From a candidate division WOR-3 bacterium (GTDB lineage: Bacteria; Hydrothermota; Hydrothermia; JBDRYB01): a DNA stretch of 49,656 bases. The notes below the pieces were generated by a model, which made no database searches, was not told the origin of the DNA, and saw only the letters and a program-made list of their open reading frames with translations. Positions within the stretch are counted from its first letter, which is position 1, and every line of letters begins with the position of its first letter. The position numbers and the translations under genes were made by a program. Of the stretch, positions 1 to 49,656 are shown one piece after another. The stretch lies in the NCBI GenBank assembly GCA_049969615.1, contig JBMFOM010000002.1, positions 1 to 49,656 of the forward strand, written 5' to 3'.

Positions 1-170
1 CTGACCCATCCGGGCTTTCTCAAACCAGGGGGGTATGCTGAGAATCAAAAATGAGCACATCCGGGGAAAGGATCACGAGGATCACAAAAGTTGCAGGAGT
101 TTGACCAGGAGCTTTATACTATGCCCATGAAAGAAAAAAGGGATCCAAAAGGGACTTTATCAGAGGTCTC
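1..170 (-). repeat. Diverged copy (H) of the intergenic repeat family, cut by the window edge
   Basis: ACTTTATCAGAGGTCTC at 154-170 is the reverse complement of motif GAGACCCCTGATAAAGT. Upstream, CCTGGTTTGAGAAAGCCC (reverse-complement view) resembles the TGGTTTGAGC module of copies B and D. Confidence 0.4.
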
Positions 171-178
171 AAAAATGT

Positions 179-1546
179 TTAATCCTGCACATCCCCCCTC
201 TCGGCCGCCCTTGCCCTTATCCCCCTCTCGGCCAGCTTGACGATCAGTTCATCCTGCGCCCCTGGTTCCCCGTGAACCAGTATGATTTCCTCCGGCTCCG
301 CGGCAGAGCACCAGTCCATGAGGCCCTTCTGATCAGCGTGTGCGGAGAACCCGTCAAGCATGTGAACCTGAGCCCTGACAGCAATGCGCTCCCAGTATAT
401 CTCAACCTCTTTCGCACCTTCGGCTATGTCCCTGCCTAGGGTTCCCTTTGCCTGATAACCAGTGAAGACTATGGAGTTTTCCTCCCTCCAGAGGTGGTGT
501 TTCAGGTGATGCTTTATACGGCCGCCAACGCACATTCCTCCGGATGCTATTATTACTGCCTTTTCCCTCAGTGAATTCAGTGATTTTGATTCCTCGGGCG
601 TCCTGGTAAAACGAAGGCCAGGAAAAACGAAAAGGTCCCTTCTTTCCAGAAAAAGATCCCTTGCCTCCTGGTCATAGGACTCAGGGTGAGCGCGAAATAC
701 ATTCATCGCGTCTATGGCCAGGGGGCTGTCCAAGAAATATCTTCCATCGGGAAGTTTTCCGGCCTCGTAGAGTTCCCTGAGATAATAAATGATGTCCTGC
801 GCGCGCTCCAGGGCGAAAGAGGGAACGATCACATTTCCCCCGCGCTCAAATGTCTCAGCGATTATCCTGCCGAGCTGTTCAACCGTCTCATTTATTGATC
901 CGTGTAGCCTGTCGCCGTATGTTGATTCCATGACAAGCAGGTTCGCCTTCCTCGGAGTTGATGGGTCGCGGATCACCGGCTTGCCAGTGTTGCCAACATC
1001 TCCGGAGAAGATCACCCTCTTTCCTCTGTAGTCTATCTCAACGAACGCCGAACCAAGTATGTGTCCCGCGTCGTGAAGGGTGAGGCTCAGCCCACGGCCC
1101 AGTTCAATCTCATCCCCGTAGTTTATCCCGTGCCTGAAGAGCCTCATCGCTTTCCTGAGGTCGTTTTCATCGTATAGGGGTCTGAGTTCCGGCAGGCCCC
1201 GTCGCAATCTCCTGCGGTTCTCCGTCGCGAGGTCTTCTTTTTGAACCTGAACCGAGTCCTCAAGCATGAGACCAGCCAGATCGAGGGTTGCCCTGTGGGT
1301 TATGACCTGGCCTCTGAAGCCCTCCCTCACCAGCCTCGGCAGGAGTCCGATGTGATCTATGTGCGCGTGGGTCAGGATTACATGGTCTATGCTGGCGGGA
1401 TCAAAAGCGAGATCCTCCCAGTTGAGTTCCTCGTTCTCACCCTGGAACATGCCTGCGTCCACGAGGAACCTGATCCCGTCAGCCTCAACGAGATGCATGG
1501 ACCCTGTCACTGTCCTGCAGGCCCCAAGAAATGTTATCCTCATCAC
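179..1546 (-). CDS. MBL-fold beta-CASP family metallo-hydrolase (RNA-metabolising type)
   Basis: 455 aa. HxHxDH motif (LTHAHIDHIG) near the N-terminus, with later D/H motifs typical of beta-CASP. Its start overlaps the argS stop by 4 nt. Confidence 0.85.
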   Translation of the reverse strand: MMRITFLGACRTVTGSMHLVEADGIRFLVDAGMFQGENEELNWEDLAFDPASIDHVILTHAHIDHIGLLPRLVREGFRGQVITHRATLDLAGLMLEDSVQVQKEDLATENRRRLRRGLPELRPLYDENDLRKAMRLFRHGINYGDEIELGRGLSLTLHDAGHILGSAFVEIDYRGKRVIFSGDVGNTGKPVIRDPSTPRKANLLVMESTYGDRLHGSINETVEQLGRIIAETFERGGNVIVPSFALERAQDIIYYLRELYEAGKLPDGRYFLDSPLAIDAMNVFRAHPESYDQEARDLFLERRDLFVFPGLRFTRTPEESKSLNSLREKAVIIASGGMCVGGRIKHHLKHHLWREENSIVFTGYQAKGTLGRDIAEGAKEVEIYWERIAVRAQVHMLDGFSAHADQKGLMDWCSAAEPEEIILVHGEPGAQDELIVKLAERGIRARAAERGDVQD

Positions 1547-3117: not shown

Positions 3118-3475
3118 TTCTAACGTCCCCCCACAGGGATTCTATGGCATAGAACTCCCTCGCGTCGCGAGTCATTATGTGGATGACAACCTCGTCCGCG
3201 TCCACGAGTATCCACCTCGCTTTTGAGTATCCCTCGGTATGGTGAGGCGTTCGTTCATTTTTGATCAATGTTTCCTCTGTCGTATCCGCCAGGGACCTCG
3301 CGTGGTCGCGGGTCAACGCTGTCGCCAGGACAAAGAAATCCGCTATGAACGGTGCTACTTCCGTCAGGTCCATTACCATTACATCCGTTGCCTTTTTGTC
3401 AGCAAGCGCAATGGCTATTTCTCTCGCTAGCTCTCGTGGTTCCTTCAGGGGAGAAATTATAACCCGCTTTCCCAC
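3092..3475 (-). CDS. rsfS: Ribosome silencing factor RsfS (iojap family)
   Basis: 127 aa. RsfS-like core (FFVLATALTRDHARSLAD ... WILVDADEVVIHIM ... REFYAIESLWGD). Confidence 0.85.
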   Translation of the reverse strand: MGKRVIISPLKEPRELAREIAIALADKKATDVMVMDLTEVAPFIADFFVLATALTRDHARSLADTTEETLIKNERTPHHTEGYSKARWILVDADEVVIHIMTRDAREFYAIESLWGDVRIERYGNEG

Positions 3476-3572
3476 GCAGGATCATGTATTAGGGTATTCG
3501 GGAAGACCGAACGGATCCGAACTCGGGTCAAAAGCGCAAATCGCACCGGATAACGATTCTGGAGATTGGCCC

Positions 3573-13560: not shown

Positions 13561-13582
13561 GGCTGGTGTCCGAGATCCCTAA

Positions 13583-13710
13583 CCCCTGGAAAATCCCGCC
13601 GCGGAAGCATTTCCTCAGGGTTCTCATCTGCTACGATGAACCTTTCGGATAGGGACAAAGGGCGAACCGGGATTTTTCAGAGTTTCAATAAGGCAATTCC
13701 CCGATCCTGC
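13583..13710 (+). repeat. Intergenic repeat copy E, in the convergent rpoD/folC spacer
   Basis: CCCCTGGAAAATCCCGCCGCGGAAGCATTTCCTCAGGGTTCTC ... CTTTCGGATAGGGACAAAG ... CCGGGATTTTTCAGAGTTTC aligns with copies C and D. It ends with a GATCCTGC promoter-cassette relic (13702-13709). Confidence 0.7.
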
Positions 13711-19476: not shown

Positions 19477-19818
19477 TTATCCCTGATATTCCGCGCCCTG
19501 ACGATCACTCTCCCAAACCACAACCTTTATAAGGCCAGGATAAAACGGAAGGAGTTTCTCGTAGATATATTTGGCTATGTTCTCCGCCGAGGGCTTCTCC
19601 ATGAGGTCGTTCAGGAGCCTGTGATCGGGCATTACCTCCTTCAACCTCGCCCTTATTTCGGCGAAATCGTAAGCCATTCCGCCCTTGCCCAGGGTTTCCG
19701 CGCCCACGAAAACCTCCACCGCGTAATTGTGCCCGTGTAGCACCTCGCACTTTCCGTCATAGTCCGGCAGGTAGTGCGCGGCTGAGAACTCCTCCTTAAC
19801 TCTCAGAATCCAGGGCAT
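19477..19818 (-). CDS. queD: 6-carboxy-5,6,7,8-tetrahydropterin synthase
   Basis: 113 aa. FSAAHYL and CEVLHGHNY motifs of the PTPS/QueD fold. Confidence 0.88.
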   Translation of the reverse strand: MPWILRVKEEFSAAHYLPDYDGKCEVLHGHNYAVEVFVGAETLGKGGMAYDFAEIRARLKEVMPDHRLLNDLMEKPSAENIAKYIYEKLLPFYPGLIKVVVWESDRQGAEYQG

Positions 19819-27601: not shown

Positions 27602-27669
27602 CCCCTCGCGCGTCCCTGGCTCAATCCATTTTCTCTGTGAATCCGAAACCTTCTCCCTGTGTGGATTGT

Positions 27670-27979
27670 ATGTGTCGGTCTGTCGGGCTAAAGCCCGAGC
27701 TGAGAGACGGGGACGGAGGGAACGGCGCCCCGTCTTATCCCTAGCGCAGGTTTTGGTTTGCGGCCGACCCGAAACCACTGAGATGATCGCTTGAAAGACT
27801 GCGCAGGAGGCGGGTTTCAAAAAACTGCTTCTGGCCATCTTTAACCCTTTTGACCCAGCGATCCGAAGAAATGTTCCCGGCCGGACCGAGGCGCGGGTTC
27901 CCCGGAACCGGACCGTTTCCCTTGGATAAAGTGCTCCTCCCCCAAACCAGTAAGTTATCGCTACTTTATCAGGGGTCCC
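27670..27979 (-). repeat. Intergenic repeat copy A (long form, inverted relative to copies B/C/D)
   Basis: The reverse complement aligns with D over GGGACCCCTGATAAAGTAGCGATAACTTACTGGTTTGGGGGAGGAGCACTTTATCCAAGGGAAAC. The hairpin module TCGGGCTAAAGCCCGA (27683-27698) and its flanks match the reverse complement of copy C 32822-32845. Confidence 0.7.
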
Positions 27980-27994
27980 CAGATACTCAAATAC

Positions 27995-28024
27995 ATGATC
28001 CTGGGCAAGAAATGGGTTTATAAT
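27995..28024 (+). promoter_or_regulatory. Promoter cassette upstream of tdh
   Basis: ATGATC CTGGGCAAGAAATGGGTT TATAAT. The ATG is 10 nt after the -10, and there is no SD. Confidence 0.55.
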
Positions 28025-28034
28025 AATATTCCCT

Positions 28035-29069
28035 ATGAAAGCCATTGTGAAGACAAAGCCCCAGCGAGGGGCAGAACTCCTGGATGTTCCTGTGCCGAAG
28101 CCCGGAGAGGGCCAGGTTCTCATCAAGGTGAAGGCTACCTCAATTTGCGGAACAGACCTCCACATATACCAGTGGAACGACTGGGCGGACAAGCGCCTCA
28201 AGAAATTACTCCCCCAGATAATGGGCCACGAGGTCGCGGGAGAGGTCATTGAGCTCGGACCTGGAGTGAAACACATTAAGGTCGGGGACTTCATATCAGC
28301 GGAGACCCATGTTCCCTGCGGTCATTGTTATGAGTGCCTTACGGGCAACATGCACATATGCTTGAACATGAAGATCTTTGGGGTTGATATGGACGGCGTG
28401 TTCGCTGAATACGCTGTTGTTCCGGAGGTTGACGCTTGGGTTAATCCACCCGATCTTCCCCCCGCCTGGGCCTCCATACAGGAACCCCTCGGCAACGCGA
28501 CGGACACGGTCCTGGCGGAGGACATAGCCGGCAGAACCGTTCTCGTGACCGGCGCTGGCCCCTTGGGACTTTTGACCGTTGCGGTCGCGAGGGCGTCCGG
28601 CGCCACCAAGATCTTCGTGTCCGAGCCGGTTGAGTTCCGAAGGAAAAAGGCCCTGGAGCTCGGCGCGGATGTTGTCATTGACCCTAGGACCGAGGATGTG
28701 GTTGAGGTGGTCAAGAAAGGGACCGGCGGCCTTGGGGTTGAGGTTCTGCTTGAGCTCTCCGGCAACGAGACCGCAATTCATCAGGGATTTGCCTGCCTTG
28801 TTCCGGGCGGAAGAGCCTCGCTCCTCGGCCTGCCCGATGGCCCAGTGACAATGGACCTGAACAACGAGATAATCTTCAAGGGCATCAGGGTCTATGGTAT
28901 AACGGGCAGAAAGATGTTTCCCACCTGGTTCAAGGTCTCTCACTTCCTATCGTCTGGCCGGATTGACCCGTCGCCGGCCATAACCCACGAGTTCAGGCTT
29001 GAGGAGTTTCAGAAGGGCTTTGAGCTCATGGAAAGGGGCGAAACAGGAAAGGTCATTCTCTATCCATAA
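28035..29069 (+). CDS. tdh: L-threonine 3-dehydrogenase (Zn-dependent MDR family)
   Basis: 344 aa. [19 protein letters not shown], structural-Zn cysteines ([15 protein letters not shown]) and Rossmann motif VTGAGPLG. The N-terminus is typical of Tdh. Confidence 0.88.
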
Positions 29070-29087
29070 GGCAGATCATTTTGTCAC

Positions 29088-29143
29088 CCTCTATACTGGT
29101 AAGAAGATCTTAATATATAAGCTAGAAGCTTACCAGTATAGGG
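29088..29143. repeat. Long inverted repeat (13-bp perfect arms) just downstream of tdh
   Basis: CTATACTGGTAAG (29091-29103) pairs with CTTACCAGTATAG (29129-29141), flanked by CCC/GGG. The 25-nt AT-rich loop contains AGATCT. Confidence 0.6.
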
Positions 29144-29229
29144 CATGACACCCTGAGCAACCCGGCCAGGCTTACGCCTCTTGGCCTTAGGGTCCAGGTT
29201 TTGCGGCAGGTTGAAAGCCTTGAATTATT

Positions 29230-29355
29230 GAGACCCCTGATAAATTAGCAATAACTTGCTTGTTTGAGCTAGGAGCACTTTGCCCGAGGGAACAGGGTTC
29301 TAAGAGGCCCCTGAAAAATCCCGCCGCAAGGGCATTCACTCAGGGTTCTCTTTTA
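29230..29355 (+). repeat. Intergenic repeat copy B
   Basis: GAGACCCCTGATAAATTAGCAATAACTTGCTTGTTTGAGCTAGGAGCACTTTGCCCGAGGGAACAGGGTTCTAAGAGGCCCCTGAAAAATCCCGCCGCAAGGGCATTCACTCAGGGTTCTC. The 3' module is replaced by the GT39 promoter. Confidence 0.75.
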
Positions 29356-29365
29356 GCCCAAATGC

Positions 29366-29394
29366 ATGATCCTGCCCAGGAAGTGGGTTATAAT
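29366..29394 (+). promoter_or_regulatory. Promoter cassette upstream of the GT39-type gene
   Basis: ATGATC CTGCCCAGGAAGTGGGT TATAAT (17-nt spacer). ATG 29402 is 7 nt after the -10. Confidence 0.55.
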
Positions 29395-29401
29395 TTTGGA
29401 G

Positions 29402-30799
29402 ATGCTGAGGGATTTCCGGTTCTGGTTGGTTATCATCGTTGCCCTTGGCCTGAGGCTCGTCCCGTGGTTTTTCGGTCTCCCGCACCCGGAGAGATACCTT
29501 TGGGGAGAGGAGGGGACCGATACTTACCAGTATCACTATATTGCCACCAATCTCGCCCAGCACGGGGCATACAGCACCTGGCCCATGGTCTCCTACATAG
29601 TTTGTCCCAATCCCTATGATTGCGCGGAAACGGCCTCGCTCTCTGATCCGGATCCGGATAGAACGCCGGTCTACCCCGGATTCCTAGCGGCCATTTATTG
29701 GCCAACCGGTTGTTCAAAAGCCGCGGCCGCGCTCATCCAGATTCTTCTCTCGGTCGCGACCGTGGCCCTGGTATTTCTCGTGGGAAAAAGGCTCTGGAGC
29801 CAGGAGGGTGGATTCCTAGCAGGCCTTGTCCTCGCTTGCGAGCCCTCGTCCTTTCTCATGGCTTCTGGCATTATGGCCGAGACCCTGTTTGCATTTTTCA
29901 TAGCGTTATCCCTCCTTCTGTTTCTCGCTTGGAAGGCCAGGCCCTCCTTTTCCCTCAGCCTGGCCCTGGGTCTCGTTTCGGCCGCTACCACCCTCACAAA
30001 ACCAACATCCCTCTATCTTTTTCCCCTGTTATTTGTTGGAACGGCTTTATTTTATTTTATTCATAGGGCATGGCGGCCTGGCCTTTCCGCGGTGCTCTCC
30101 CTCGCTATTTATCTGGGAGGGATAGGCCTCTGGTGTCTGAGAAACTACGTTGAGTTCGGGGTCCCGGAGCTCACGAGCATCCAAGGTTACACCCTGATGA
30201 GGTTCCACTACGCGCCAACAAGGGGACGGATTGAGGCCAAGGATTTTCTCACGATGGATTCGGAGGTTGTAAAAGAAATGGGAGCCATATTGGCCGAGGC
30301 GGATTCAAACCCCATGCTCGCGGCCCGGCTCATGGCCAGACGTTCAACAGATTACATTCTCCGGCACCCGGCTGACTATGCTGTTGTTTATCTTAAGGGC
30401 TTGCCCAGAACCCTAATGCCTGCCATAAACACATCATATATACTGACGGGAAAGTGGGTCTACTCTGACATATATGTGAGCCTTGCCGGAGGGGGGTTCG
30501 GGGCCATCAGGCATGAGCTATCAGGCCTCTGGCATGACGCGCGGTGGCCCTTTATCCTATGGATACCCCAGGCCCTCCTTTTGCTGGTGATATACCTTGC
30601 CCTTGCTTTTGGTCTCTGGCGGGCCAGAAAAAATCCCTTGATTCTCATCCCCTTGTTTTATCTGGCCTACCTGATCCTAATCCCCGGCCCTGGTTCAATG
30701 GCCAGGTTTCGCGTTGCTTGGGCGCCACTAGCGGCTTTGGTTGCCGGCGCGGCCCTCTTGAGGGAAAGGGACAAACCGAGATTTTTCAAGGGGTTTTAG
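29402..30799 (+). CDS. Membrane glycosyltransferase, GT-C fold (GT39 / ArnT-PMT-like)
   Basis: About 12 predicted TM helices with an acidic first loop (WGEEGTDTYQYH). The ORF track starts at 29366, but that codon lies inside the promoter, so ATG 29402 (MLRDFRFWLV) is preferred. Confidence 0.7.
   Translation: MLRDFRFWLVIIVALGLRLVPWFFGLPHPERYLWGEEGTDTYQYHYIATNLAQHGAYSTWPMVSYIVCPNPYDCAETASLSDPDPDRTPVYPGFLAAIYWPTGCSKAAAALIQILLSVATVALVFLVGKRLWSQEGGFLAGLVLACEPSSFLMASGIMAETLFAFFIALSLLLFLAWKARPSFSLSLALGLVSAATTLTKPTSLYLFPLLFVGTALFYFIHRAWRPGLSAVLSLAIYLGGIGLWCLRNYVEFGVPELTSIQGYTLMRFHYAPTRGRIEAKDFLTMDSEVVKEMGAILAEADSNPMLAARLMARRSTDYILRHPADYAVVYLKGLPRTLMPAINTSYILTGKWVYSDIYVSLAGGGFGAIRHELSGLWHDARWPFILWIPQALLLLVIYLALAFGLWRARKNPLILIPLFYLAYLILIPGPGSMARFRVAWAPLAALVAGAALLRERDKPRFFKGF
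30768..30796 (+). repeat. Repeat-family 3' module embedded in the last codons of the GT39-type gene (copy G)
   Basis: GGGACAAACCGAGATTTTTCAAGGGGTTTT matches GGGACAAACCGAAATTTTTCATGGGTTTC (copy C) and GGACAAACCAAAATTTTTCTGGGGTTTC (copy D). Confidence 0.65.
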
Positions 30800-30853
30800 G
30801 ACAAGCACGCAACAGATAAGGTTTCCAAGCGATAGCACAAGAGAGACCTGCCC

Positions 30854-32707
30854 CTACTTAGGTAGGCTCTTCTTGAGTTCGTTGACTGCCTCAACATCCT
30901 CCATTCTGCCCAAGTTGCTGTAGATAAGGCTGGCTTCATCCAGGCATTCTGATGCCTTTTCAACATTCCCAATCTGGATATAGGCTATGCCGAGATAATG
31001 GAGGGTTACTGCTTTCTCGCTTATGTCCGATTCCGATAATTTTGAGTCAAGGTCCTCCAACACTTTTATAGCCTCCTTGGGCTGATTTAGCATCACATAG
31101 GATATACCCACCAGCTGGATGGCCTCGGACTGGTGTTCGTTTTCCGGATAAGACTCCACAAACTTTTTCATGGTGCTGGCCGCGTAGGAGTATTTCTTCT
31201 GGTTGAAATATATCTGCCCCGCGTAGAACAGAGCGTCCGGCGCCCTCCTGTGTTTCGGGAACAGGGTGGCCATCTTGTAGAAAAGCGATGCGGCTGTGTC
31301 GTATTCGGCAGGGCTGTTGAGCTTCTCTCCCTCCTCATAGTGTTTTGCTGCCCAGTAATAGTATGCCTCAGCCAGTTCCTGCGAGTTTGGAAACGTCTTC
31401 TCAAACTCAGGCAGGATTCCCTCATCCTCCAGGGCTATGGCGTAATAAGTCTGGGACATCCGGCCCTTCACATCATCCACGAGCCGGTTGTATGGGAACC
31501 GGGCTATAAACTCCTTGAATTTTATGAGAGCGCTTCTGTATTCCTTCATTGAGAAATACATCTCAGCGAGCATGTAGATTGCCCTGTCGTTTTTGGGATA
31601 ATCAGGAAACTGTTTGATGAGCCACTCAAGCATGAGTATAGCGTGCTCGTTGTCGCCTCCAGCCGCATAAGACTCGCCGAGCCTAAACGCGGCCGGTGCG
31701 GCCTTTTCCATGTTGCCGTAGTCCTCTATCACCTTGCGCCACGAGTGCTCTGACTCAGGGAAGTTTCTCATCACCTCGCAGACGAAACCCCTGTGATAGA
31801 GTATCTCCGCGGCCAGATAGGGGTTTTTGGGCTGGGGCATATATATCTCATTGAGCATGGCGTAGGCTTCCCCATATTTGCCCATGTTGAAGATCGCTAT
31901 TGCGACGCCGAGCTCCGCGCACTTCGCCAGGTCAGAACCCTCCGGAGATGAGATGAGCACTATCTCCAGCTGGGTTTTCGCGTCAGCGGGCCTGGCCTCG
32001 TGCAGGTTGCACCAGCCCGCGCCCAGCCGTGAGTAAAGCACCACGATTGAGTCCGTGTTGTGGCTTATGTTCTCCAGAAAATAGCGTTCCGCTACCTCGT
32101 AGTCTCCCTTGAAATAACTGCACATGCCGGTTGCCCAGACTGTCCAGCCGTTCCAGAATCCCCTCTCAACATCCTCCTCGCCCTCCCTCACATAGACAGA
32201 GCCAACCGCCTGGCCCTCAGCGTACTGCCCCCAGTATAGGTATGAGAGGACTGCCAGTGCCCTTGCCTCCCTGCCCAGGGGAAAGCCGCGGTTCTTGTTG
32301 ATGAAGCTCTTGAGGTCCTTCGCTGATAACCAGTATCTCCCGAAAGCGTAGTCCGCCACCGCGGCCAAGAACTCGCCGGCCTTCGCGTAATCACCCTTGA
32401 CCCTTATTGACTGAGCGATCTTCAACGCGCCGGTCGTGTCAAGCGCGCTTACCCATGAGGACAGAGAGGATGCCGCAGAGAGGACCTCCTGCGGAGCACC
32501 CTGTTGAACCAGGGAGGCGTTGACTGCTTCTAAGGCGTTAAATGGTGGGTCAAGGAGGGGCATCTTCATGTCGGTTATCCTGTATTCGCCGGTCTCTATG
32601 ACCTCCTCCTCCATCTCGGTTCCGGCCTGAAAATTGGTTTTATCCCCGGATTCACCAGTCTGCTGTCCTAGTATTCCCAGACAAAACAATCCCCATAACA
32701 TAACCAT
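30854..32707 (-). CDS. Secreted TPR-repeat protein
   Basis: 617 aa. Signal-like N-terminus and many TPR-like A/Y/G-patterned helices. The promoter geometry suggests the third codon (ATG at 32701) is the real start. Confidence 0.75.
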   Translation of the reverse strand: MVMLWGLFCLGILGQQTGESGDKTNFQAGTEMEEEVIETGEYRITDMKMPLLDPPFNALEAVNASLVQQGAPQEVLSAASSLSSWVSALDTTGALKIAQSIRVKGDYAKAGEFLAAVADYAFGRYWLSAKDLKSFINKNRGFPLGREARALAVLSYLYWGQYAEGQAVGSVYVREGEEDVERGFWNGWTVWATGMCSYFKGDYEVAERYFLENISHNTDSIVVLYSRLGAGWCNLHEARPADAKTQLEIVLISSPEGSDLAKCAELGVAIAIFNMGKYGEAYAMLNEIYMPQPKNPYLAAEILYHRGFVCEVMRNFPESEHSWRKVIEDYGNMEKAAPAAFRLGESYAAGGDNEHAILMLEWLIKQFPDYPKNDRAIYMLAEMYFSMKEYRSALIKFKEFIARFPYNRLVDDVKGRMSQTYYAIALEDEGILPEFEKTFPNSQELAEAYYYWAAKHYEEGEKLNSPAEYDTAASLFYKMATLFPKHRRAPDALFYAGQIYFNQKKYSYAASTMKKFVESYPENEHQSEAIQLVGISYVMLNQPKEAIKVLEDLDSKLSESDISEKAVTLHYLGIAYIQIGNVEKASECLDEASLIYSNLGRMEDVEAVNELKKSLPK

Positions 32708-32709
32708 AA

Positions 32710-32738
32710 GATTAAGGCATAAGGGGATGTGAATTCAA
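32710..32738 (-). promoter_or_regulatory. Putative promoter of the TPR gene
   Basis: On the minus strand: TTGAAT, 17-nt spacer, TTAATC. ATG 32701 lies 8 nt after the -10. Repeat motif CTTTATCAAGGGTCTC lies 6 nt upstream of the -35. Confidence 0.4.
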
Positions 32739-32744
32739 GTTGCT

Positions 32745-33072
32745 GAGACCCTTGATAAAGTCGCAGGCTAAAGCCTACGCTGGGAAAACAATACTGAGCT
32801 AGCCCCTAGAATTCCCCGTTCCCGGGTCGGGCTTTAGCCCGACAGGCCAGCTAATACCCAACTTTGACACCTCATTTTTCTCAATTCGTTTACTGATAAG
32901 GGATCCCGGGGATCATGGGACAAAATTTCGGGACTAGGTTACTTGTGCCGGGTCTATGAACGCGAAACACCTGAAAAATCCCGCCGCAAGGGCATTCATT
33001 CAGGATTCTCTTCCAGCTATGATGAGGCTCTCGGATATGACCAGGGACAAACCGAAATTTTTCATGGGTTTC
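32745..33072 (+). repeat. Intergenic repeat copy C (long, mosaic form)
   Basis: GAGACCCTTGATAAAG, then hairpins AGGCTAAAGCCT and GTCGGGCTTTAGCCCGAC (32826-32843), then an internal partial reiteration (CTGATAAGGGATCC ... GGGACAAAATTTCGGG). It ends with CCTGAAAAATCCCGCCGCAAGGGCATTCATTCAGGATTCTC ... GGGACAAACCGAAATTTTTCATGGGTTTC. Confidence 0.75.
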
Positions 33073-33131
33073 CGTTGCTTAATTTGTCGGAGGAGGACCA
33101 CAGGTTTTGAATTTCACGCGGTAACAAGTGT

Positions 33132-33160
33132 TTGATCCTGCGCAGGGAGTGGGTTATAAT
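33132..33160 (+). promoter_or_regulatory. Promoter cassette driving the cobalamin riboswitch / receptor operon
   Basis: TTGATC CTGCGCAGGGAGTGGGT TATAAT (17-nt spacer). It contains the perfect 10-bp palindrome CCTGCGCAGG (33137-33146). Confidence 0.6.
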
Positions 33161-33164
33161 TTTC

Positions 33165-33420
33165 CAGGTCGCGGTTCAAGGGAACCGGGTGAAAATCCCG
33201 GGCTGTCCCCGCAGCCGTAACCGGCAAAGGGCTTCTCATGAGGCCACTGGGAGGATGAAATAATAGGTGAAAGCCGCCCTCCTGGGAAGGCGAGAGGTTC
33301 ACCGCCGGAAGCCGGAAAACCTTGCCCGATAAATCAGGCTTCTGTAAGAAGGGGCCTGCTGGAGCCTCCGGGGAAAGGGGCAAATGCAGATAGGGTTTAT
33401 CTTTCCCTCTGGCTCCCCAT
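33165..33420 (+). promoter_or_regulatory. Cobalamin (B12) riboswitch with expression-platform hairpin
   Basis: Conserved core GGTTCAAGGGAACCGGGTGAAAATCCCGGGCTGTCCCCGCAGCCGTAA ... GCCACTGGGAGG ... CCTGGGAAGGC. B12 box GAAGCCGGAAAACCTTGCC (33308-33326). A long hairpin follows (GGAGCCTCCGGGGAAAG / CTTTCCCTCTGGCTCC) just before the ATG. Confidence 0.9.
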
Positions 33421-39299: not shown

Positions 39300-39890
39300 A
39301 TGGACGAATTTTTCAATTGGTTTTTCACTGAGCGCAGGGAACTAATTGTCCGAATGGCAGAGGGGCGACTGACCCAGAAGGATACCCTGGTCGGTTTCAC
39401 CAGGCATACCCCGGCCATAGTCTCGGCCGGCCCTGGTGGCCTCAACGCCTCCATCAAGGGCGTTGGTGTTGTTCACAGGGAGGAGTTTCTCCCGGAGACC
39501 CTTGAGAAGATAGAGGCTTATCTGAATGAGCACCCCAGGCCTGCTCCCAGGAGCTCATCGGGTTTCCTTCTTTCCGAGATATACGTCCAAGAGCGTATTG
39601 ATCCCATGCGGATTTCAACCATAGAGCTGGCCCGCCGGCACACCTACCAGAACCTGAGGGGAGGCGGCCCAACCACCTTGCTTTTCTATGAGCCTCCTTC
39701 GGTGACCTATGAGCTCAGGTGCAGGGCGGAGTGTTACCATGACGGCCCCTTCTTCAGGTTCGTCAACGGGCTTCACGATGTGTTCCACGGCCTCAGGAAG
39801 GACTGGAGCAAGACCCCTGTCTATATCTTTACCATAGAGGAGATCTACGACAATCATCCGGAAAAAATGGGGGAGAGGATTTACCCGTAG
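39300..39890 (+). CDS. Hypothetical protein
   Basis: 196 aa ORF with coding-like composition. No motif recognised. Confidence 0.5.
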   Translation: MDEFFNWFFTERRELIVRMAEGRLTQKDTLVGFTRHTPAIVSAGPGGLNASIKGVGVVHREEFLPETLEKIEAYLNEHPRPAPRSSSGFLLSEIYVQERIDPMRISTIELARRHTYQNLRGGGPTTLLFYEPPSVTYELRCRAECYHDGPFFRFVNGLHDVFHGLRKDWSKTPVYIFTIEEIYDNHPEKMGERIYP

Positions 39891-39903
39891 AATCTGTTCT
39901 CAT

Positions 39904-40086
39904 GAGACCCCTGATAAAGTAATAATAACTTAATGGTTTGAGCGAGGAGCGCTTTGTCCAAGAGAACAGGGTTCTAATAGGGGGGATCCCCTGAAAAATC
40001 CCACTGTGAGGGAGTTACCTCAGGGTTCTCTTCTAGCTATGATGAGGCTTTCGGATATGGACAAACCAAAATTTTTCTGGGGTTTC
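39904..40086 (+). repeat. Intergenic repeat copy D (cleanest full-length copy)
   Basis: GAGACCCCTGATAAAGT ... TGGTTTGAGCGAGGAGCGCTTTGTCCAAGAGAACAGGGTTCTAA ... CCCCTGAAAAATCCCACTGTGAGGGAGTTACCTCAGGGTTCTCTTCTAGCTATGATGAGGCTTTCGGATATGGACAAACCAAAATTTTTCTGGGGTTTC. Confidence 0.8.
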
Positions 40087-40119
40087 TTCTCAGTTGGAGA
40101 ACCGCGTTTGCTCAACAAG

Positions 40120-46135: not shown

Positions 46136-46167
46136 GAAACCCCTGAAAAATCCCGGTTTGTCCCTGG
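46136..46167 (-). repeat. Partial inverted copy (F) of the repeat 3' module
   Basis: The reverse complement CCAGGGACAAACCGGGATTTTTCAGGGGTTTC matches the copy C/D 3' module. Its TTGTCC supplies the apparent -35 of the osmC promoter. Confidence 0.65.
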
Positions 46168-47998: not shown

Positions 47999-48180
47999 CT
48001 GGGTGCCAAATCACCCCTTGATCCTGCGCAACTCACCAGCTGTAGGCTGTGATCCTTATTAAGGGATTAGCCCACCTAACATTACTCAGTCTACCTTTGG
48101 AACCCGGGCGCGGCTCAATCTGAGGTCAAAGACTTAGAACCATTGCATCATATCTGTCTGGTCTCCCCAAATACAAAAAT

Positions 48181-48209
48181 TTGATCCTGTGCAGGAAGTG
48201 GGTTATAAC
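48181..48209 (+). promoter_or_regulatory. rRNA operon promoter P1 (same cassette as tdh / GT39 / riboswitch)
   Basis: TTGATC CTGTGCAGGAAGTGGGT TATAAC (17-nt spacer). Confidence 0.6.
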
Positions 48210-48311
48210 TTGAGAAGCTCAATTTTTGCTCTGAGATCGCCAAACCCTTGCCCCAACTTGGATAGAGCCAAAGGAGCACAATCGGCTAAGGGAACCCCCT
48301 TGACAGGGGAC

Positions 48312-48340
48312 TTGATCGGCCATGACAAATCGGTTATAAT
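48312..48340 (+). promoter_or_regulatory. rRNA operon promoter P2
   Basis: TTGATC GGCCATGACAAATCGGT TATAAT (17-nt spacer), about 85 nt upstream of the 16S 5' end. Confidence 0.6.

Positions 48341-48422: not shown

Positions 48423-49656
<1,234 letters not shown>

Follow-up and report, generated by a model that had tools for sequence, protein, structure and literature searches.

Repeats that resemble MITEs (miniature inverted-repeat transposable elements) are well known in cultured bacteria. The WOR-3/Hydrothermia lineage is known almost only from metagenome-assembled genomes (MAGs), and to our knowledge no MITE-like repeats have been described for it (no targeted literature search was made). 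A WOR-3 isolate has been brought into culture (PMC12285271). Here, we report a recurring intergenic repeat family in a WOR-3 contig (JBMFOM010000002.1; the complete 49,656-nt NCBI contig of a MAG, called the window below), which is probably a family of small, nonautonomous, decaying MITE-like elements of the Candidatus Hydrothermia (WOR-3) lineage. Repeat copies with common termini and short flanking duplications were observed in the window, are absent from congeners, and are present in a second species. Most likely, the copies are an ordinary element type in a new host, restricted to a small number of uncultured WOR-3 bacteria from hot environments and forming a new family with a modular mosaic structure like that of BOX elements or bacterial interspersed mosaic elements (BIMEs).

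The repeat family was confirmed as real by profile searches, alignments, and shuffled controls. Module M1 (about 75 nt, TGAGACCCCTGATAAAGT...GAACAGGGTTCTAA) is complete in copies A, B, and D and is represented by its first 18 nt only in C and H, and module M2 (about 100 nt, CCCCTGAAAAATCCC...GGGATTTTTCAGGGGTTTC) is full in C, D, and E, with its 5' half in B and its 3' end in F and G (Table 1). The three M1 copies had nhmmer E values of 6e-24 to 2e-20 and blastn identities of 84 to 85% over 61 to 79 nt, the full M2 copies had nhmmer E values of 8e-31 to 1e-28, and all pieces except the two 18-nt M1 starts had profile E values from about 1e-31 to 8e-5. A 24-base M2 pattern gave 4 matches in the window versus 0 in 100 shuffles, and the core 12-mer ACCCCTGAWAAA (at most 1 mismatch) gave 12 versus 0.51 expected, all of them inside listed copies. 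Window copies are 75 to 85% identical to one another. A second, fragmented MAG of the same species (GCA_049703495.1, labeled Candidatus Hydrothermia bacterium [WOR-3 lineage]; proteins 99.6 to 100% identical to those of the window) carries C at the same place and in the same arrangement (locus L027, 98.8% identity) together with the start of D (contig L026), so the copies are not an assembly artifact.

An earlier sequence-only reading of this DNA had listed at least eight copies in both orientations. Seven sites (A, B, C, D, E, F, and G) are statistically solid and do lie in both orientations, whereas the eighth, H, is an 18-nt end fragment only; it had been drawn at 1 to 170, where positions 154 to 171 (minus strand) match the family and nothing in 1 to 153 does. 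The proposed module consensus sequences and most of the coordinates hold under nhmmer and blastn, and profile matches bear out the description of B as lacking its 3' part and of F and G as 3' parts only. G had been placed inside a coding sequence, and it encodes the last ~10 residues of a PMT-like open reading frame (ORF). Copy A, drawn as a single 310-nt unit, is instead an M1 and a separate hairpin module (M3) common only to C. Similarity no better than that of shuffled sequence had been named as grounds for dropping the family; by the counts above, it lies far beyond the shuffled controls. A fourth recurring piece had been overlooked, namely, a promoter-like module of 39 nt; it directly adjoins A and B, and 52 nt separate it from C.

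In the full unit, found in D and in the second-species copy (locus L020), M1 precedes M2; GAGACCCCTGATAAA forms the start and TTTTTCAGGGGTTTC the end. Inverted copies of the motif GARACCCCTGAWAAA delimit both the whole unit and M2 by itself; the M1 3' arm matches this motif over only about 9 nt. Whole or partial, this motif occurs four times per unit in alternating orientation, and all three intact composites (C, D, and L020) begin with GAGACC and end with GGTTTC. The terminal inverted repeats (GAGACCCCTGATAAA versus the reverse complement GAAACCCCTGAAAAT) are imperfect: of the first 15 nt, 12 match in L020 and 10 to 11 match in C and D, and over a longer stretch, 13 of 22 nt match in each of the three.

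Target-site duplications at the copy boundaries had been proposed as a check, and a direct repeat of 5 to 6 bp lies within 1 nt of both ends in all three intact composites (TTCTCA at D, GTTGCT at C, and ATTGC at L020). Random placements in the window yield such a flanking repeat in 0.6% of trials, which corresponds to about 2e-7 for three of three. The empty site reconstructed for D is ATCTGTTCTCAGTTGG. The pairs B...C and B...G were also considered as one transposon with its own duplication and were rejected, as no matching flanks were read by eye.

These duplications bear on a different origin, in which the copies would be repetitive extragenic palindromic (REP) elements, REP doublets forming hairpins (REPINs), or BIME-like elements, mobilized as single-stranded DNA by a single-copy REP-associated tyrosine transposase (RAYT; IS200/IS605-type Y1) or serving as mRNA-stabilizing or protein-binding sites. 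We regard this as unlikely. Y1 transposition makes no target-site duplication, and REP, REPIN, and BIME copies are accordingly expected to have none, whereas the intact composites carry 5- to 6-bp repeats; REP-type units are imperfect palindromes of 20 to 40 nt, often with a conserved GTAG-like head, whereas the recurring motif GARACCCCTGAWAAA(TCCCG) has by eye neither an internal dyad nor such a head, with pairing only between distant inverted copies; and no RAYT gene is present in the window. The architecture does have points in common with such elements, since each sub-unit consists of two inverted motifs around a 45- to 75-nt spacer, with four motifs alternating as in BIMEs and REPINs, and the composition is modular. 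Small palindromic GGCTWWAGCC hairpins accompany A and C, a CCC-N7-GGG subterminal hairpin follows the M2 5' motif in B, C, and D, and the placement at gene 3' ends and between convergent genes is typical. The sequence-only reading had proposed a modular, hairpin-forming element of the MITE or REP/BIME type; this is supported, and MITE is the better fit, given the flanking duplications and the nonpalindromic repeated motif.

For comparison, loci totaling 317 kb were fetched. Four congener loci (L009, L012, L013, and L014; 68 to 85% nucleotide identity to the window) align with window positions 19483 to 39890, and this 20-kb synteny breaks exactly at the elements. The spacer between the OmpA and alcohol dehydrogenase genes (window 27606 to 28018) measures 412 nt here and 115 nt in L009; from the stop codon of the alcohol dehydrogenase gene to a riboswitch (window 29065 to 33155), there are 4,090 nt here and 108 nt in the congeners; and congener synteny stops at 39890, 14 nt before D. 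A more distant relative (L001) retains both genes that flank D, with an 89-nt spacer and no element between them; ATCTGTT, which directly precedes the insertion point in the window, is present there too. The loci fetched from other relatives (L001 to L019, L021, and L022) yielded no M1 or M2; motif matches in L005 to L007 lie within coding sequence and were discounted as chance. At orthologous sites, then, the congeners are without elements at A, B-C, and D (a between-species comparison). Gene order also differs among congeners exactly at repeat-bearing spacers (39890 onward versus L009 10591 onward and L021 2400 to 2650), with both neighbors changed after the 196-aa gene and upstream of OmpA, which suggests that repeat-bearing spacers are rearrangement points.

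Absence from orthologous spacers of congeners agrees with the earlier view of a dispersed or mobile repeat and argues against a conserved regulatory site. It is therefore very unlikely that selection maintains the copies as sites bound by a regulator or nucleoid protein, with inverted pairs placed in the spacers of a regulon. The 12-nt motif does occur 12 times, always in inverted pairs or promoter-proximal spacers, and three copies adjoin the conserved promoter module. Yet congeners with the same genes are without the sites, the neighboring genes are functionally unrelated (rpoD, Mur ligase, OmpA, alcohol dehydrogenase, chemotaxis-like genes, and OsmC), and identity within the genome is about 80% over the 75 to 100 nt between motifs. 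Flanking duplications, and the position of several copies between convergent genes where there is no promoter, likewise do not suit such sites.

Beyond the window, four pattern scans, two covering 185,579 species genomes and two covering JGI metagenomes, gave one true match overall, a full M1+M2 copy in a related but different species (L020, a stretch of contig FWPU01001699.1), whose assemblies include four (GCA_900174565.1, GCA_900175145.1, GCA_900175155.1, and GCA_900174595.1). In three further assemblies of the second species, contigs stop inside the L020 element, one after 9 nt and the others after about 103 nt and about 138 nt (one with variant bases), and the L026 contig of the second same-species MAG stops 29 nt into D. 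Contig ends inside copies in four independent assemblies suggest a multicopy repeat, as such repeats cause breaks of this kind when short reads are assembled. At L023 2645 to 2740 lies a second copy, degenerate and with an internal deletion. With the window contig as the only one read from its source genome, there are seven to eight sites in this 50 kb, and contigs of four other assemblies break within copies.

The sequence-only reading had allowed that copies confined to the window would mean local duplication only. The distribution is wider than that, given the full copy that another species carries at an unrelated locus and the assembly breaks at copies in four assemblies, and segmental duplication and rearrangement of one region without mobility is the least probable explanation that we weighed. 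It draws on the clustering of five of the eight sites within 27.6 to 33.1 kb, on the M2 of C being the nearest match to the M2 pieces of B and G (95% and 90%, respectively), and on a 4-kb block between B and C that is absent from congeners. In addition to the wider distribution, copies up to 46 kb apart, in both orientations, and the flanking duplications count against it.

Sequence conservation between the two species is concentrated at the ends. The first 36 nt of M1 are 81 to 92% identical, the M2 end motifs 64 to 81%, and the interiors 17 to 50%; within the window, copy interiors are about 80% identical. Conservation of only the termini between species is expected if the ends are transposase recognition sites. 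The M2 pattern CCTGRAAAATCCC-N17-TCAGGRTTCTC, which matches all four window copies, had zero matches in the genome and metagenome contig scans. In the genome contigs, three single matches to a 21-nt M2 3'-end probe, all in unrelated phyla (Pyrinomonadaceae, Smithellaceae, and Bacteroidetes), were rejected, with about one expected by chance. L016, a 21-kb stretch of a 64.7-kb contig of the other species reached via SurA homologues, has no clear copy and one weak match to the degenerate copy; the L020 copy is on a different part of this contig. In the acyl-CoA dehydrogenase cluster, no member was identical to the same-species protein.

Each sub-unit can close as a hairpin, with closing helices of 11 to 15 bp in every full M1 and M2 copy; the self-complementarity of the M2 ends had been noticed before. 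Such helices, in which G-U pairs are tolerated, would also suit a structured RNA family, that is, small RNAs or cis-acting hairpins of 3' or 5' untranslated regions kept for the fold of the transcript (mRNA-end stability, insulation, or target pairing). Both ends of the A M1 are changed alike (GGG for GAG at the 5' end, GGAACC for AGAACC in the 3' reverse complement) with the helix retained, and several copies are placed to be transcribed as 3' untranslated regions. Nonetheless, we consider an RNA family quite unlikely. Fold z-scores of the copies are -0.4 to -2.0, so the interiors are not unusually stable, and the consensus folds are weak (-11.4 and -8.7 kcal/mol). A search for compensatory changes had been proposed, and no convincing covariation emerged: covariation terms are near zero, and the seeming double changes in M2 reflect a register shift of 1 nt. 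Interiors are not conserved from one species to the other, and the copies lie in both orientations relative to their neighbors and are absent at the orthologous sites of congeners.

No copy matched an Rfam 15 family at the gathering score; permissive scans yielded nothing above noise, the best sub-threshold matches being microRNA-precursor hairpins at 14 to 19 bits versus thresholds of 57 to 66. Viral contigs, plasmids, and phages also gave no match, and the clean hit to an already described family for which the sequence-only reading had left room was thus found neither there nor in Rfam. Inside M1 and M2, there was no consistent prediction of an intrinsic terminator or promoter. A hammerhead-like CUGAUGAG resemblance in M2 was rejected because the helices do not form and Rfam gave no match. 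Integron attC sites, CRISPR, retrons, and IS200/IS605 end RNAs were set aside, given the housekeeping context, the lack of arrays, and the lack of Rfam matches.

A MITE is defined in the literature as an element of 50 to 800 bp with terminal inverted repeats of at least 10 to 15 bp, duplications of 2 to 10 bp, and no transposase, mostly limited to one genus (PMC11602168). The family agrees with this definition in size, inverted repeats, duplications, freedom from transposase, and genus-level restriction (PMC11602168). Element sizes are 104 to 328 nt, without transposase coding capacity; the terminal inverted repeats reach the stated length, imperfectly; the 5- to 6-bp duplications are within the stated range, on a small sample; and elements are present or absent at orthologous sites, as compared between species.

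If the family is MITE-like, the transposing unit would be about 185 nt (GAGACCCCTGATAAA...TTTTTCAGGGGTTTC), built from M1 and M2 and foldable as two hairpins. A transposase encoded elsewhere, presumably of the DDE type, would bind the terminal motif and insert the element in trans with a 5- to 6-bp duplication. Old copies would have decayed to solo M2 (E), to end fragments (F, G, and H), and to variants with swapped interiors (C and A), and recombination between copies may have helped to rearrange the genome relative to congeners. Any effect of the copies on transcripts is something that we infer.

Several observations weigh against this MITE-like origin. The copies are 15 to 25% diverged, with no sign of recent activity, and the paired end change of A is as compatible with selection for pairing as with descent from a subfamily. 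The flanking repeat fits the ends of L020 exactly and is shifted by 1 nt at D and C; it is absent at solo M2 (E) and, read by eye, at the B...G pair; and it could be tested on three intact elements only, a small sample with boundaries set from the copy alignment. One true match in four scans means that the family is rare and possibly low-copy. Among the window ORFs, there was no match to a transposase or integrase, as the sequence-only reading had already stated for transposases, and neither a helper enzyme nor a complete insertion sequence bounded by these termini was found.

Like Correia/NEMIS of Neisseria, RUP of Streptococcus pneumoniae, MITEAba12, and Nezha of cyanobacteria, the WOR-3 element is small and noncoding, with imperfect inverted repeats of about 15 nt and short flanking direct repeats; it is intergenic in either orientation and lineage restricted, and it combines conserved ends with interiors that vary by subfamily and includes truncated or decayed copies. 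Unlike in these bacterial MITEs, its terminal motif recurs twice internally, giving two hairpin modules joined head to tail. Its duplications are 5 to 6 bp, in contrast to the TA duplication of Correia and RUP, it has no sequence similarity to any collection searched, and its host is uncultured WOR-3/Hydrothermia. With BOX (S. pneumoniae) and BIMEs (enterobacteria), it shares modular sub-units that occur together, alone, or in part, alternating motifs, and long transcript hairpins, but BOX and BIME copies are without clear flanking duplications. BIMEs are built from REP palindromes that are bound by gyrase and IHF, and they are tied to RAYTs; neither the palindromes nor, in the window, a RAYT association was found in the WOR-3 family. 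REPINs are similar in having two inverted short motifs around a spacer, an approximately 100-nt hairpin, and old, diverged populations, and the WOR-3 element differs from them in its flanking duplications, its nonpalindromic motif, and the lack of a RAYT in the window (PMC8049555).

The 39-nt promoter-like module consists of TTGATCC or ATGATCC, 17 to 18 nt, TATAAT, and the conserved spacer CTG.GCAGGRAGTGGGT, and can be written as the pattern TTGATCC-N-GGGTTATAAT. A looser version occurs in a relative (L021) and at a second rRNA promoter. Its near-identical occurrence before five unrelated genes resembles reused or mobile promoters in prokaryotes (PMC3575422) and the outward promoters of insertion sequence ends. 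It lies, however, outside the inverted-repeat boundaries of intact C and D. The module may simply be the strong-promoter consensus of the lineage and not a mobile piece. Start codons lie 10 nt and 7 nt after TATAAT at 28019 to 28037 and 29389 to 29404, with the same layout at about 2870 to 2889 in L009 and about 13846 to 13861 in L021. The short distance between the -10 element and the ATG (7 to 10 nt) points to leaderless or near-leaderless mRNAs. For this group, the module offers an initial picture of a strong promoter (TTGATC, 17 nt, TATAAT, and leaderless starts).

The M2 of B ends where the promoter module starts, and B and G have the appearance of a single M1-M2 element interrupted by the module and a PMT-like gene. 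The congeners have 108 nt in place of a 4.09-kb block (29066 to 33154) that comprises B, the PMT-like glycosyltransferase gene, an opposite-strand TPR gene, and C; the PMT-like and TPR genes have no homologue in the 317 kb of fetched loci. In the window, the module replaces the -35 element and spacer of two promoters that differ in the congener. It is conceivable, though doubtful, that the elements form a modular kit by which a ready-made strong promoter, at times together with genes, is moved within the genome. In that case, they would constitute a natural MITE system that delivers promoters and cargo and rewires expression in a streamlined thermophile genome.

Under the MITE-like reading that we favor, the general understanding of mobile DNA is unchanged. 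The elements break short-read assemblies (four cases), mark differences between syntenic congeners, and are usable as lineage-specific markers, and one fragment (G) supplies the stop codon of a gene. The features are listed in Table 1.

Table 1. Repeat copies, flanking repeats, and promoter-like modules (positions are those of the window unless another locus is named; E values are from nhmmer)
Feature	Position	Strand	Details
Copy D, complete composite	39904-40086	+	M1 39904-39977 (4e-23), M2 39986-40086 (1e-28); unit about 185 nt
Ends of copy D, GAGACCCCTGATAAA and reverse complement GAAACCCCAGAAAAA	39904-40086	+	Sequence reading
TTCTCA, left putative target-site duplication of D	39897-39902	.	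One T between TTCTCA and element
TTCTCA, right putative target-site duplication of D	40087-40092	.	
Copy C, long variant	32745-33072	+	First 18 nt of M1 (32745-32761), about 200 nt of other sequence, full M2 (32966-33072)
Two small GGCTWWAGCC hairpins in C interior	32762-32779 and 32826-32843		
GTTGCT flanks of C	32739-32744 and 33074-33079		
Copy B	29230-29357	+	M1 29230-29303 (6e-24) and M2 5' half 29306-29357 (M2 positions 3-55, 1e-11)
Fragment G, M2 3' end	30753-30797	+	M2 positions 66-109, 8e-5; last ~10 residues of PMT-like ORF, stop codon directly after
Copy A, M1 only	27903-27979	-	2e-20; ends GGGACC/GGTTCC instead of GAGACC/GGTTCT
Hairpin module M3 (GTCGGGCTAAAGCCCGAC region)	27677-27713	-	Common only to C 32813-32848; 86% over 37 nt, E 1e-5
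Copy E, solo M2	13581-13686	+	8e-31; between convergent rpoD and Mur-ligase genes; 13-bp closing stem; no flanking duplication
Fragment F, terminal 32 nt of M2 3' end	46136-46167	-	1e-6; 91% identity to C
Fragment H, 18-nt M1 start (TGAGACCTCTGATAAAGT)	154-171	-	Marginal alone, E 0.02-0.7
Full M1+M2 copy, second species	L020 3840-4025 (contig FWPU01001699.1)		Unrelated locus, downstream of ornithine carbamoyltransferase gene
Promoter-like module before rsfS	3456-3497	-	
Promoter-like module abutting A	27988-28026	+	Before alcohol dehydrogenase gene, ATG at 28035; L009 keeps TATAAT, not upstream part
Promoter-like module abutting B	29359-29397	+	ATGATC, 17 nt, TATAAT; in-frame ATG 29402, 7 nt after -10; before PMT-like gene
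Promoter-like module 52 nt after C	33125-33163	+	TTGATC, 17 nt, TATAAT; before cobalamin riboswitch; L009 keeps TATAAT, not upstream part
Promoter-like module before 16S rRNA gene	48174-48212		
Promoter-like half-copy next to H	about 172-195		

Between the M1 and M3 of A, positions 27843 to 27880 resemble, by eye, sequence that is also present in relatives. M3 was considered as a dispersed REP and rejected, having only the A and C copies plus one similar hairpin in C and a motif count at chance level.

The window is ordinary chromosome, with argS, rsfS, grpE, dnaK, dnaJ, dnaG, rpoD, two tRNAs, a cobalamin riboswitch, and the start of a 16S rRNA gene. The latter (48423 to 49656) is truncated by the contig end, with the first 1.2 kb present, and two tandem promoter-like sites precede it (48181 to 48209 and 48312 to 48340). 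The cobalamin riboswitch (33149 to 33343; 85.5 bits) is conserved in congeners and lies upstream of a gene (517 aa) whose TonB-dependent receptor signature is weak. In a distant WOR-3 relative, L005 3202 to 3891 carries DDE_Tnp_1 transposase fragments and a phage-integrase gene, with no motif of the repeat family nearby. Right after the alcohol dehydrogenase stop codon in the window, there is a long hairpin (29082 to 29150) with 22-nt arms that are 86% complementary and 25 nt between them; the L009 spacer has nothing similar.

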